From assembly GCA_048882505.1 (NCBI GenBank), contig JBHLRO010000001.1, forward strand, positions 450,001 through 482,000: DNA of 32,000 bases, in the 5' to 3' direction. The notes under the pieces are model-generated. The model worked only from the letters and a program-made list of their open reading frames with translations, ran no database searches and was not told where the DNA came from. Below are positions 27,731-32,000 of the stretch, one piece after another (the first letter of the stretch is position 1; each line of letters begins with the position of its first letter). Both the position numbers and the translations under genes were made by a program. Origin of the DNA: Candidatus Thorarchaeota archaeon. GTDB taxonomy: Archaea; Asgardarchaeota; Heimdallarchaeia; Hodarchaeales; Hodarchaeaceae.

Positions 27731-30361
27731 TTGGAAACGTACCTGACTAGGAGACCTGTGGTGAGCCTGACCTCTCAACAGACAGTTGTTTTTACCCTCA
27801 TCGACCTAGATTATGAGATCTATTCATCCCCCCTAGGGCAACGACCTCGACTTAGACTTTGGGGACGCGCAGGGCATGATATTGTTGAAGTTAGAGTAGT
27901 AAATTTCCTTCCGTATTTTTACGCTCAAACCACAGAAGAAGAAGTACGTATACTTCTGTCCCAGGCGGACCAGCAGATAAGAGATTGGGTACTAGAGATT
28001 AATCCGCTTGAAAGACGAGTATACTTTGGTGGAGATACGATTAAATTGGTACGCCTGGTAGGCTCCCTCCCATATCAGGTTCCCCTCATTAGACAATTTC
28101 TGGAAGAACATCAAGTTGTAACACATGAAGCTGACATTCCCTTCACCCGGCGATTCTTGATTGACAGAAATCTTCGTGCACTTCACCCCATTCGTGCCTC
28201 AGGAAAGATTTTGGGGTCCAAATCTAGTTCCATCATCATGGAAACTGAGGTCAAGAATATAACCGCTGAGGAGTCGAATACGGATTTCCAACCCCTTGTC
28301 CTAGCTTTTGATATTGAAGTGGATGAACAGGGTGAAACCATTCAAGAATTAATGGATGAGAAAAGGAGACGGATTACCGCAATCTCACTTGCTTGGGGTA
28401 GATTTCCGACTGAACACCCCGATTCAAAAGTCTTAATTCTCAGAACCAAGACCGATGATGCTGAACGCGAGATCCTTGAGAAGTTTCTTTATCTCGTCCA
28501 GAGCGCAATCAGACCTGATATCTTGGTGTCATTCAATGGAACGTTTTTTGATATTCCTTATTTGGAATCCAGATTAAAACGTTATGGCAAGTCAATGGGG
28601 TCATTAACCTTATTTGAGGGACTGCAAGACACCATTCTAAAAGTTAATATTCCAGTCGAAAGTTATCGTCTCAGAGGTCGTGGAGTGGTGGACCTAATGC
28701 CGAAGACGTGGCATATTCATCCAGTTTCGGGGAAAAAAAATTTGGAGACGATTGCAAACTATGTCCTCGGGGAATCTAAAGTTGCCGTTCCAACTAGTCT
28801 GGGGGAATTATGGCGTAAAGGTGTTCACGGCGATGAGGAATCGATGCGGAATTTTCATGATTATTCTCTCCAGGATGCCATCCTGACATTTCGATTAGTA
28901 GGAGAACTGGGAATTATTGATACCCTAGAACTATGTCGTTTGGTGGGATACCCATTGCCTGAAGGCCTTTTGTCTACAGCTAGGCAGATCGGTGAATATG
29001 AACTCTATAGAATCCTATATGAAAATGAAATCTTGATACCATCAAAACCTAGCTCTACTGAACTTAAACAACGTCAGGAGTTGAAACGTAAGCATCCACA
29101 TCTGGGGGGGTGGGTCATCGACCCCACTGTGAGCGAGGCAACTTTCGTTGCCATTCTTGATTTTCGGTCACTCTACCCGAATTTGGTTCGTGTCCACAAT
29201 ATTAGTGGTGAGACTTTGATTCATGGTTCTGAAAACTTGGCACCCGTAGAAAGATTCCGAAAAACACCACAGGGCGCTCTTGCAAAGCTGATGGACCGGA
29301 TCTTGAAACAGCGATACAAAGTCCTGCACGAACTCGACCAAGTTCCAGAGACTCTGGATAAGGAAACTCAGGAAAACTGGAAAAAGATGTTGAAGAGACA
29401 AGAAATCTCACTTAAACTCATGGCAAATTCTTTGTATGGTTCATCAAATTATCCCCGTGGGCGATTTTACCATCATCTAATGTCAAATAGTATAACTGCA
29501 ATCGCTCGCGATCTACTTGGGGTGAAACTACAAAAGTGGACAGAAGAATTCGCAGTCCAACAACCTTATGGGGTTGCTCTCCTCTATGGTGATACTGATT
29601 CCATTTTCATTGAATTTCAACTTGATTTGAATCCTCAAGAGTTTTCTTGGCCCACAAAGCAATCTTTAGCCCCCCTTTTGAGTGCCATTAATATGTATCG
29701 AGAATTTCTAGCGAACAAGTTACCTGAGTTCCTTGAACTAAAATTAGAGGATATTGCACTTAGAATCATTTTGAAAGAGGGACGGAAGAAGGCGTACGCC
29801 TATTATTCACTCCTTTCGGGTGAGATCATAATTAAGGGGTTTGAGGCGGTTCGGTCTGATTGGTCTCCCCTGGCCAAAAGGACCCAAAGGCAGCTTTTAG
29901 AAACCCTCCTTACGGATTTCACGGATGATCGCGCTCAGAAAGCCCAAAGCGTTGTAATACAGGCATGTCGTACCATTTTGACTAAATCTATGTCCCAGCT
30001 TTTTGAAGATTTAACCATTCGGGGACCCCTTCGTAAGGCTCCAAGCAAATATAGGACAAAAACTCCAGCGGTTGGTGCATTTCTAAAGTATTGCACCAGA
30101 AACAAACTAGATCCTGAAGAGGAGTGGAAAAGATGGGATGGGTTTCCCTATATCATCGCTAAAGGCCCCATCGGAAAACCACAGTATCTTCGTGCTTTTC
30201 ACCCTGACGTTTTTCATGATAAAAGACAGAAACCAGATCGGAGACATTATGTACGGGAGATATTAGGTGCAAGCGAGCGATTTGGGATTGCTTTTTCTGA
30301 AAATGAAATCCTACACAAAATCTTTGTTATTCCCTTAACCGAATTTCTGGCTAATAACTAA
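27731..30361 (+). CDS. polB: Family B DNA polymerase with intact exonuclease and polymerase motifs
   Basis: ExoI AFDIEVD, ExoII FNGTFFDIPYL, ExoIII YSLQDA; motif A LDFRSLYPN, motif B LKLMANSLYG, motif C YGDTDS; KGFEAVRSDW. No C-terminal Cys cluster. Confidence 0.95.
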   Translation: METYLTRRPVVSLTSQQTVVFTLIDLDYEIYSSPLGQRPRLRLWGRAGHDIVEVRVVNFLPYFYAQTTEEEVRILLSQADQQIRDWVLEINPLERRVYFGGDTIKLVRLVGSLPYQVPLIRQFLEEHQVVTHEADIPFTRRFLIDRNLRALHPIRASGKILGSKSSSIIMETEVKNITAEESNTDFQPLVLAFDIEVDEQGETIQELMDEKRRRITAISLAWGRFPTEHPDSKVLILRTKTDDAEREILEKFLYLVQSAIRPDILVSFNGTFFDIPYLESRLKRYGKSMGSLTLFEGLQDTILKVNIPVESYRLRGRGVVDLMPKTWHIHPVSGKKNLETIANYVLGESKVAVPTSLGELWRKGVHGDEESMRNFHDYSLQDAILTFRLVGELGIIDTLELCRLVGYPLPEGLLSTARQIGEYELYRILYENEILIPSKPSSTELKQRQELKRKHPHLGGWVIDPTVSEATFVAILDFRSLYPNLVRVHNISGETLIHGSENLAPVERFRKTPQGALAKLMDRILKQRYKVLHELDQVPETLDKETQENWKKMLKRQEISLKLMANSLYGSSNYPRGRFYHHLMSNSITAIARDLLGVKLQKWTEEFAVQQPYGVALLYGDTDSIFIEFQLDLNPQEFSWPTKQSLAPLLSAINMYREFLANKLPEFLELKLEDIALRIILKEGRKKAYAYYSLLSGEIIIKGFEAVRSDWSPLAKRTQRQLLETLLTDFTDDRAQKAQSVVIQACRTILTKSMSQLFEDLTIRGPLRKAPSKYRTKTPAVGAFLKYCTRNKLDPEEEWKRWDGFPYIIAKGPIGKPQYLRAFHPDVFHDKRQKPDRRHYVREILGASERFGIAFSENEILHKIFVIPLTEFLANN

Positions 30362-30600
30362 TCTTGCAATTAAATGATTATTGAGGATCTAAGAAGGTTC
30401 TTTGATCATTTGTGGGGTAGTTAAAAACCTTATCAGCACGACTAAACTTTCTTGCTAAATTATAACGGAAAAGGATCGGCTGTCTATAATTCCGAACATA
30501 AATCCCCACCCGTTCTAATACTTGGTTCTTTATCGGAACCTCCAAAGTAGTGATCACAGTTGGAAATCATTTGATTAAGATCGTTGGAGCATGTTTCAAG

Positions 30601-32000
30601 ATGAAAATTCGTTTTATTAGTATTATGATCTTATTTATTCTCATAATGGGAGTTTTTCAGTCTGTAAACGCTTCTCAGTTGTCGATATCAGAATCAAAAT
30701 ATGGAAACGGAATTGATGACCAAAAATCCAGTGATTCTCTTGATGATCGTTCGTTTGAGGTTGAAATAGAGTCTCAATCATTGGAATCGCTCTCGAGATT
30801 TGATGACCCATTGTCTCGTCAAATCAGTCCGCTAGTTGTTAACAACGCATCAACCAATCAAAAGATTGTCCAATCTGTACAGGATGACCTAGTTGTCAAT
30901 ATTGATTTAGAAAAAAATACGATTCCGTCTGGAACCCCTCTTTATTTTTCAATTCAAGCTACAAGGGGATTTTTACCAGCTGAAGGAGCTGAATTTTTGC
31001 TGGAAATCATTGATGGCGAGTACTGGGGGTATTATTATTGGTGGGCGGAGGAATACTATAACTACCAAGATCGGGTCATAACAACAGAACAAGTCACAAT
31101 TGGGCCTGATGGGGAGTATCAAGGGATGTTCCTCCCACCAAAGGACGGTATTTTCACGCTAGTTGTCCGAGATCTAAGCTCAAATGTTCTGCAGAGTCGA
31201 ACCTTTACTGTAGCTGATATTGGGATTTTCTGGAGGGTACCATGGGAATATATAATCGGTGAGGAACACTATTCAGTGGCTTATGTTTTGAACACAACTG
31301 ATTTTTCCCCTGTAACGAACGTAGCTGTGGAACTATCTACCATTACCTATGAATACGTTCCGGATAATGCGGATTACGAGGTAAATACAGATTTGGTGTT
31401 TACAGGGGTAACCGATGAATCTGGTGTTGTCGAGATTTCATTTATTCCATCAAGTAGTTTTTCATCAGGTTATTTCCTCGCAAACCTAAGTGCTACCTAC
31501 AACGGTAGATCGGTTTATGTATCCCGAGAGCTTAGACAAGGGGATAACAGGTGGTGGTGGGGTAGTGATCAAGGCTATAACCCCTATGAGTTTATTATAA
31601 CAACCGATAAACCGATCTACACTCCAGGTGAATCGATACAAGCACGGATATTAGTATGGAAAAACGATTATCACAAGGTTACTAAAAAACCAGTGAAGGA
31701 AACTTTCACCCTAAGGTTATTATCTCCGTCGCAGCATATACTTGTCCAGCGTGAATTGACTACTGATACTTTTGGGGTGGCTACCTATTCTTTTCCGCTT
31801 GATACTGATATTGAATTAGGTAAATATACCTTAGAAGCCAAAAAAGGTGAAATTCAGTCATTTCAAGAGATTAGAGTTGATAGATACGAAAAACCTGCTT
31901 TTCGAGTAGATCTTCTATTAGACCGAGACTATGTCCCACCCGGGGAATTAATAACTGGAACCCTTAGTGCAAAATACTATTTTGGCAAACCCGTGGTAAA
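30601..32000 (+). CDS. Secreted alpha-2-macroglobulin-family (MG-domain) protein, 5' part (runs off the right edge)
   Basis: Not in the ORF track because there is no stop. Open for 466 codons: signal peptide MKIRFISIMILFILIMGVFQSVNA, then ITTDKPIYTPGESIQARILV (31600), LGKYTLEA, IRVDRYEKPAFRV (31870) and LSAKYYFGKPV (31963). These are the ordered MG2/MG3 motifs of A2M and complement-like proteins. Confidence 0.85.
   Translation, partial: MKIRFISIMILFILIMGVFQSVNASQLSISESKYGNGIDDQKSSDSLDDRSFEVEIESQSLESLSRFDDPLSRQISPLVVNNASTNQKIVQSVQDDLVVNIDLEKNTIPSGTPLYFSIQATRGFLPAEGAEFLLEIIDGEYWGYYYWWAEEYYNYQDRVITTEQVTIGPDGEYQGMFLPPKDGIFTLVVRDLSSNVLQSRTFTVADIGIFWRVPWEYIIGEEHYSVAYVLNTTDFSPVTNVAVELSTITYEYVPDNADYEVNTDLVFTGVTDESGVVEISFIPSSSFSSGYFLANLSATYNGRSVYVSRELRQGDNRWWWGSDQGYNPYEFIITTDKPIYTPGESIQARILVWKNDYHKVTKKPVKETFTLRLLSPSQHILVQRELTTDTFGVATYSFPLDTDIELGKYTLEAKKGEIQSFQEIRVDRYEKPAFRVDLLLDRDYVPPGELITGTLSAKYYFGKPVV

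Follow-up and report, generated by a model that had tools for sequence, protein, structure and literature searches.

A probable surface-tethered protease trap of the alpha-2-macroglobulin family in Asgard archaea

What is a protein resembling animal alpha-2-macroglobulin (A2M) and complement doing in an Asgard archaeon, and did its gene have a part in the origin of the thioester proteins of animal innate immunity? The question is raised by the end of a 32,000-nucleotide stretch of DNA (the window; positions 450,001 to 482,000, forward strand, of contig JBHLRO010000001.1 in assembly GCA_048882505.1, here G000:C1:450001-482000) from a genome of the Hodarchaeales deposited as Candidatus Thorarchaeota archaeon, where a first-pass annotation made from the sequence alone had recognised the beginning of an A2M-like gene. 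We extended this gene in its own genome (94.6% complete, the contig being 515 kb long) and compared its complete product, P0002, with known structures and with homologues from archaea, bacteria and eukaryotes. To judge from its sequence and predicted structure, P0002 is probably a monomeric, surface-tethered protease trap; the branch of the family in which it falls is archaeal, and it is not the forerunner of animal complement.

The open reading frame (ORF) begins at an ATG at position 30601 and is still open at the end of the window (32000), with no rival ORF of at least 60 aa overlapping it on either strand in the ORF listing of the window. An in-frame GTG lies upstream, at 30550; the choice of the ATG is backed by homologues that open with MKIR or MKKK. 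Beyond the window the frame runs to G000:C1:486492 (L002:601-6492, window-equivalent 36492), giving a product of 1,963 aa counted from the ATG, of which the window holds the first quarter. NCBI names the family “MG2 domain-containing protein”, and a genome-wide domain search found this to be the single A2M-domain gene of the genome. The macroglobulin (MG) motifs quoted in the first-pass annotation are all there, in the order it gave: TDKPIYTPG (aa 335-343, nt 31603-31629), YEKPAFRV (aa 429-436, nt 31885-31908), and AKYYFGKPV (aa 457-465, nt 31969-31995). Since the Pfam MG2 model matches aa 332-419, inside the window, with E = 1.3e-22 (80.4 bits against a cut-off of 32.8), the A2M assignment is not due to chance. 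The features encoded in the window, with model confidence given as predicted local distance difference test (pLDDT) values, are the following:

30601..32000, + strand: 5' part of the A2M-family gene, codons 1-466 (ORF, own-genome extension, and Pfam MG2, A2M_BRD, A2M, TED_complement, and bMG10)
30601..30672, + strand: predicted Sec-type signal peptide, aa 1-24, cleavage at VNA/SQ (sequence reading, hydrophobic peak)
30673..30876, + strand: disordered acidic Ser/Thr-rich segment, aa 25-92, poorly conserved (pLDDT <35, model residues 1-69)
30889..31212, + strand: first MG-like beta-sandwich, aa 97-204, holding the aromatic insert YWGYYYWWAEEYYNY (AlphaFold strands 74-181)
31219..31539, + strand: second MG-like beta-sandwich, aa 207-313, followed by the aromatic linker RWWWG at nt 31549-31563 (model strands 184-290)
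31585..31878, + strand: third beta-sandwich, equal to Pfam MG2, aa 329-426, holding TDKPIYTPG (model strands 306-403, pLDDT ~90)
31900..32000, + strand: fourth beta-sandwich, from aa 434, holding AKYYFGKPV and cut by the window end (model strands 411-518)

The remainder of P0002 carries, by amino acid position on the same strand:

aa 763-899: Pfam A2M_BRD, E = 6.3e-08, 33.5 bits (cut-off 22.7)
aa 994-1081: Pfam A2M (MG7), E = 2.2e-16
aa 1194-1472: Pfam TED_complement, the thioester domain (TED), E = 8.6e-27
aa 1205-1209: thioester motif GCTEQ, read from the sequence
aa 1708-1800: Pfam bMG10, the MG8/receptor-binding-type domain, 29.6 bits (cut-off 26.2), a beta-sandwich in the model
aa 1865-1921: immunoglobulin (Ig)-like Big_13 domain, weak Pfam match
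aa 1930-1954: hydrophobic helix followed by RRKTKG, read from the sequence

This full Pfam domain set and the structural matches bear out the membership of the A2M/thioester superfamily. The region downstream of the window, where the first-pass annotation had placed the thioester and where a lack of A2M and TED domains would have told against it, holds GCTEQ together with the TED, bait-region, A2M, and bMG10 domains. A model of aa 24-762, built from a 34-sequence family alignment (pLDDT 80.2), consists of a disordered acidic tail of ~70 residues and six beta-sandwiches, the third being Pfam MG2; in Foldseek searches it matches the MG1-MG6 chains of C5, C3, and C4 at ~1e-22 and also A2ML1, CD109, TEP1, ECAM, and SaA2M (E ~1e-22 to 1e-19). 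In the model of aa 755-1830 (pLDDT 76.8), beta-sandwiches surround the all-helical TED and two loops are of low confidence (aa 898-982 and 1666-1694); its closest structures are native human CD109 (E = 1.9e-38, TM-score 0.51), then A2M, A2ML1, C5, and TEP1, with E. coli ECAM and Salmonella A2M at ~1e-31. In alignment A2, residues D313, K314, Y317, and P319 of MG2 and Y437, F438, and G439 of the fourth sandwich are invariant. The N-terminal tail (aa 25-92; 12 D+E and 17 S+T) includes the lowest conservation window within the genus (0.21). Pfam searches of P0002 at E <= 0.01 gave no matches to ANATO, C345C/NTR, or A2M_recep (PF07677), and PADLOC defence models gave none either; NCBIfam returned only weak squalene-cyclase matches, because TED shares the alpha/alpha toroid with these enzymes.

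The thioester motif GCxEQ is kept in 61/61 Asgard family members, and Cys1206 of this motif is one of only two Cys in the whole of P0002. Upstream of it, aa 898-982 are modelled with pLDDT <50, and when 57 full-length family members are aligned, the two low-confidence loops coincide with the least conserved internal stretches. The 30-residue window from position 953 has a within-genus conservation of 0.25 (0.63 overall) and is variable in length, and the loop is flanked by a conserved aromatic block (ending in WWFWWY) and by the conserved IRDNLPENAYW. This disordered, fast-evolving loop between the bait-region domain and the A2M domain looks like a bait region. A catalytic His of the C3/C4B kind was considered as a family feature and rejected, His1318 being present only in P0002 and its 88% identical relative P0003, that is, in 2/57 aligned members. 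In the HMMER alignment, SWGHID of the query lies on PCPVLD of C4A, so that Asp1320, not His1318, occupies the isotypic position 1106, which is Asp in C4A and His in C4B; all other Hodarchaeales, Heimdall, and Thor members read SWR[GN][IV]D at this place, and the Loki branch has Asn. As a sequence character, the conserved Asp/Asn favours A2M/C4A-like reactivity towards amines.

P0002 is predicted to be a type I membrane protein exported by the Sec system, with a single C-terminal transmembrane (TM) helix, a basic cytoplasmic tail, and its domains on the outer face. Its N-terminus (MKIR, a hydrophobic run with a peak of 2.3, then VNA/SQ) reads as a Sec/SPase I signal which, as had been proposed in the first pass, is devoid of a lipobox Cys; a lipobox-like match occurs in only 1/19 family members. 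The C-terminal anchor suggested there as a check was found as well: all 19 family members examined end in a hydrophobic helix, and the segment is present in 19/19 Asgard and 8/8 Thermoplasmata-type proteins and absent, bar one borderline bacterial case, from the bacterial, DPANN, Frey/Bathy-type, and eukaryotic rows. The label “extracellular” has to be amended accordingly, given that the helix tethers P0002 and leaves it unreleased. We also considered whether the conserved [IV]PxxP that precedes the helix could be an archaeosortase-type sorting signal and set the idea aside, regarding the segment simply as a TM anchor: the exosortase/archaeosortase family PF09721 had no match in the 94.6%-complete genome (with a positive Methanocaldococcus jannaschii control), although one Pfam family is no proof of absence.

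In the mechanism that we propose, a foreign protease would cleave the exposed hypervariable bait loop (~aa 940-985, in the disordered segment 898-982), the MG-domain body would rearrange, and the presumably buried Cys1206-Gln1209 thioester in TED would become exposed and react with amines (Lys) of the protease. Held by this covalent bond, the protease would stay at the cell surface and be hindered sterically from acting. We infer that the thioester bond forms, that proteolysis is the trigger, and that proteases are the target; the role would presumably be to shield the surface of a cell lacking both a wall and an outer membrane. Because GCxEQ is strictly conserved in a nearly Cys-free protein whose bait loop evolves fast, P0002 has the marks of a triggered reactive device and not of a scaffold. 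Several observations weigh against a protease trap. Cleavage of the bait also activates C3/TEP-type (thioester-containing protein) opsonins and CD109, so that a bait and a thioester alone are not diagnostic; the loop of the “catalytic His” is ~9 residues shorter than in C4, which makes the alignment ambiguous and the exact equivalence of positions uncertain; at the genus loci examined there is no pbpC, protease, transporter, or other conserved functional neighbour; and the patchy occurrence of the family in the phylum (47/400 genomes match at E <= 1e-20) shows that its function is dispensable for most Asgard archaea.

Two other roles have to be weighed against the trap. The activated protein might, in the manner of complement, TEPs, or an adhesin, attach itself covalently to foreign surfaces (syntrophic partner cells, competitors, or virions), or serve as a “chemical harpoon”, with no inhibition of proteases. 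Asgard archaea live in tight association with partner cells, the top structural match is the membrane-attached, monomeric CD109, the C-terminal tether puts TED near the cell's own surface, and P0002 has its His near the C3/C4B catalytic position. Nevertheless, that His is confined to the two sequences mentioned whereas the conserved Asp/Asn is that of the amine-reactive C4A and A2M, Pfam detects no anaphylatoxin or C345C/NTR domain, a protein held in its own membrane can tag only what comes into contact with the cell, and a hypervariable bait is what protease traps of broad spectrum typically have. As it has no conserved His and is fixed in its own membrane, tagging or adhesion is less likely than trapping, and we consider it unlikely overall. 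The MG array and TED could also form a structural envelope scaffold, perhaps crosslinking itself to envelope components, an option to which the very large size of the protein, its Ig-like stalk, its disordered acidic N-terminal tail, and the lack of a partner gene lend some colour. We find it improbable in view of the strictly kept GCxEQ of an almost Cys-free protein, the fast evolution of the bait, N-glycosylation sequons that are not enriched (15 vs 14.1 ± 3.5), and the absence of a match in most of the searched Asgard genomes.

A protease trap at the surface of P0002's host would have counterparts in several known systems. ECAM (YfhM) and SaA2M (PDB 5a42, 4u48) are likewise prokaryotic, membrane-tethered, and presumably monomeric thioester traps, in which a long row of MG domains is combined with a bait and TED and the last domain is of the bMG10 type; their folds match at ~1e-31. 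An N-terminal lipid (lipobox), however, anchors them in the periplasm, and pbpC (PBP1c) is their genetic partner, whereas P0002 has a signal peptide with a predicted cleavage site, is held by a C-terminal TM helix, has no pbpC beside it, comes from a host without peptidoglycan, and scores only 30.6 bits against ECAM. Human CD109 (PDB 8s3o) shares with P0002 the C-terminal surface attachment and, as far as these are predicted for P0002, the monomeric state and activation through proteolysis of a bait region, and is the best structural match (E and TM-score given above); it differs by its glycosylphosphatidylinositol (GPI) anchor and its A2M_recep last domain, P0002 having instead a TM helix, two extra N-terminal sandwiches, and an Ig-like stalk, and the two are not specifically related according to the approximately unbiased (AU) test (see below). 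The C-terminal TM helix therefore represents a third tethering solution beside the bacterial N-terminal lipid and the GPI anchor of CD109.

Archaeal A2M homologues with CxEQ have been reported before by Makarova et al. 2021 (PMC8416519), whose 27 proteins are spread over 24 genomes, for the most part of Halobacteria and Methanomicrobia; the supplementary phyletic table of that work lists two in Heimdallarchaeota LC_3, and its main text is silent on Asgard archaea. Like P0002, these proteins come from archaeal hosts and combine a signal peptide and Ig/MG domains with a TED whose CxEQ is intact. The Asgard-wide clade (~1,950-2,050 aa), the TM anchor common with Thermoplasmata, and the synteny are not described there, and P0002 lacks the Ig-protein, peptide-transporter, and arCOG14565 neighbours of the published loci. 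A literature search, with subscription journals mostly outside its reach, found no published work on Asgard A2Ms. An Asgard-wide clade of A2M-family thioester proteins whose C-terminal TM anchor is shared with Thermoplasmata is a modest but real novelty, and the archaeal clade formed by the two groups is unanalysed in the literature searched.

Where this clade belongs in the family was examined with sequence scores and trees. In the word-indexed search the scores break sharply between the most distant Asgard member (>=557 bits) and any other protein (<=261 bits, a bacterial one being the highest). Exhaustive HMMER searches, with 8,908 representative matches in all, align the whole query with complete members (~1,950-2,130 aa) at >= ~360 bits and with other proteins at <=255 bits over the A2M-TED core only. 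The top non-family matches (~250 bits) are the Thermoplasmata A2Ms (P0140, P0156; MEM2899151.1, MEM2870702.1), which adjoin the Asgard clade; unlike P0002, they are mostly 2,380-2,810 aa long, and 3/8 are without GCxEQ. Eukaryotic proteins score <=168 bits (PDB A2ML1 133, A2M 124). We built a 172-row FastTree and a 64-row IQ-TREE (LG+C20+F+G4 PMSF) phylogeny, both unrooted and sampling top-scoring homologues with two confirmed eukaryotic sequences, both of the vertebrate A2M type. In them the Asgard proteins form one clade (support 100, starred, and 100/100) on a long stem, placed in a three-way fork with a clade of long proteins, two of them named Thermoplasmata archaeon, and with a 100/98 clade that unites a small unnamed group and a bacterial A2M_recep clade (Planctomycetota, WOR-3, Kiritimatiellae). 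The vertebrate A2Ms and prokaryotic CD109-like proteins nest inside this bacterial A2M_recep clade. The nearest relatives of the Asgard proteins include Thermoplasmata A2Ms with the same anchor, the three-way fork leaving the sister order unsettled (FastTree support of 84), and the anchor, as an independent architectural character, agrees with the archaeal grouping.

With these placements, two other origins can be judged. A recent acquisition of the gene from bacteria, or bacterial contamination of the metagenome-assembled genome, might be suspected from the predominance of bacteria among the A2M homologues, from the match of the C-terminal domain to the “bacterial” bMG10 model, and from the transfers from bacteria inferred for some Methanomicrobia A2Ms (Makarova et al. 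2021, PMC8416519). We regard it as very improbable: the 515-kb contig carries an archaeal family-B DNA polymerase (PolB) gene and conserved flanks in the same order in 9/9 genus genomes, the Asgard sequences do not nest in a bacterial clade, the placement that the first-pass annotation had foreseen as lowering its evolutionary interest, but stand apart on their long stem and across the score gap, and the nearest outgroup includes the equally anchored Thermoplasmata proteins. The other idea, that eukaryotic A2M, TEP, and complement descend directly from the Asgard A2M or form its sister group, underlay the relevance to the origin of innate-immunity thioester proteins claimed in the first pass. 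Among solved structures A2ML1 and A2M do score far above ECAM, and the Asgard clade lies on the eukaryote side of the tree relative to the classical bMG10-type bacterial A2Ms (89/90). However, two starred branches enclosing bacterial sequences stand between the Asgard proteins and eukaryotes, the vertebrate A2Ms going with the bacterial clade; prokaryotic proteins (~250-260 bits) are nearer than any eukaryotic one; A2M_recep, ANATO, and NTR domains are not detected in P0002 by Pfam; and the AU test rejects both a grouping of Asgard with eukaryotes (ΔlnL 103.5, p = 1.3e-5) and one of Asgard with eukaryotes and the CD109-like proteins (p = 9e-4). There is hardly any likelihood left for this idea, and the question of a descent of animal complement/A2M from the Asgard gene is answered in the negative. 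Eukaryotic TEPs are, besides, essentially restricted to animals.

The archaeal lineage retains an interest of its own. No known prokaryotes are closer to eukaryotes than the Asgard archaea, whose surface contacts with partner cells are thought to be relevant to eukaryogenesis while their surface proteins are little known. The very large, conserved surface protein described here, with its thioester motif, is present in Hodarchaeales and in cultured Lokiarchaeia (P0061, in the closed genome of Lokiarchaeum ossiferum) and offers an experimentally testable target. A separate observation concerns the prokaryotic CD109-like A2Ms (P0220 at L022:7872-13028; P0070, P0090), which group with the vertebrate A2Ms with 100/99 support and bear on the long-standing issue of which way A2M genes passed between bacteria and animals; the contig of one of them also carries ParE/antitoxin and HTH genes.

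The Asgard host proposed in the first pass is confirmed by the closest proteins, which are named Candidatus Heimdallarchaeota, Hodarchaeales, or Promethearchaeota, and by the gene order shared within the genus. The sequencing datasets listed as containing this stretch are sediment metagenomes, one of them perhaps the source sample, with no RNA dataset among them. The gene is present in 19/21 genomes of the Hodarchaeales genus, with 45-88% identity and most copies complete and single; some are fragmented at contig ends. Its constant neighbour, a matter of context and not a functional partner, is:

27731..30361, + strand: PolB gene (Pfam DNA_pol_B, E = 3.8e-42, plus an exonuclease domain)

This gene is directly upstream on the same strand at 9/9 loci of the genus, including that of the closed 4.9-Mb genome G009, and further flanks are common to them too. 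On the evidence of these sequences, the A2M gene is inherited vertically within the genus, its frame of 1,950 aa being under purifying selection. The orthologue at G017:C82:1037-6697 has a single in-frame TAA, which could be a pseudogene mutation, a sequencing error, or recoding. The adjacent pbpC gene that the first pass had suggested looking for is not there, the neighbours being PolB, N6-DNA methylases, and a ribbon-helix-helix (RHH) regulator. The last two types belong to a downstream insertion (L002:6551-10877, window-equivalent 36551-40877) found only in G000 and the 88% relative (L013), which comprises genes for an Eco57I/MmeI-like N6-adenine methylase (775 aa), an N6/N4 methylase (435 aa), and an RHH_8 regulator and looks like a small restriction-modification island. 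The other seven examined genomes of the genus have at this place an uncharacterised 250-aa gene and a myo-inositol-1-phosphate synthase gene.

P0002 is rich in aromatic residues (11.9%), and the aromatic inserts that had been singled out in the first pass, YWGYYYWWAEEYYNY (aa 141-155, nt 31021-31065) and RWWWG (aa 317-321), do exist, although they follow consensus patterns of the whole family (GEYWxWYxY and YYWxWxG) and are not peculiar to P0002. Three such Trp/Tyr-rich clusters are conserved and family-specific: GEYWxWYxY in the first sandwich, where the insert is modelled by AlphaFold as a short helix at low confidence, YYWxWxG before MG2, and WWFWWY (aa 934-939, window-equivalent nt 33400-33417), which abuts the bait loop.

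Across the phylum, full-length family members occur in the genome families f1 (19/21), f6 (1/1), and f19 (8/14), in one genus of f20 (10/135), and in one genome of f32; f3 (0/31) and f4 (0/12), of the same class, gave no match with the P0002 query. Such patchiness fits an ancient ancestry followed by losses as well as it fits transfer within Asgard archaea. A few other Asgard genomes encode a second, shorter type of A2M (~1,550-1,650 aa) with GCVEQ and no C-terminal TM segment (G081, G117, G127, G280-G282, and second matches in G229 and G050; P0201 from Freyarchaeota and P0174 from Bathyarchaeota). The shorter type forms a separate clade adjoining the bMG10-type bacterial A2Ms, and Asgard archaea therefore carry at least two unrelated A2M lineages.

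At 7/7 Loki-type loci (f19, f20), the A2M gene is immediately preceded, on its own strand, by a small gene encoding 154-202 aa:

L023:13102-13710, - strand: small upstream gene
L024:5886-6443, + strand: small upstream gene
L025:13041-13580, - strand: small upstream gene
L026:13894-14418, - strand: small upstream gene
L027:13272-13736, - strand: small upstream gene
L029:6146-6658, + strand: small upstream gene
L030:6074-6649, + strand: small upstream gene

Its product combines an ArsR/TrmB-like winged helix (below the Pfam threshold) with apparent C-terminal TM helices and is a candidate membrane-anchored regulator. A bolder proposal, which we hold to be distinctly unlikely, is that the whole TM-anchored lineage of Asgard archaea and Thermoplasmata would be a complement-like device for surface recognition or attachment that, once triggered by proteolysis or contact, bonds covalently to partner cells, competitors, or virions, an archaeal innate “tagging” system whose evolution ran parallel to that of animal TEPs, perhaps regulated at Loki-type loci by this winged-helix protein. 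The genome that carries P0002 has a homologue of the small regulator, 46% identical, on another contig (G000:C21:2173-2595, - strand; L031), and PolB takes its place upstream of the A2M gene.

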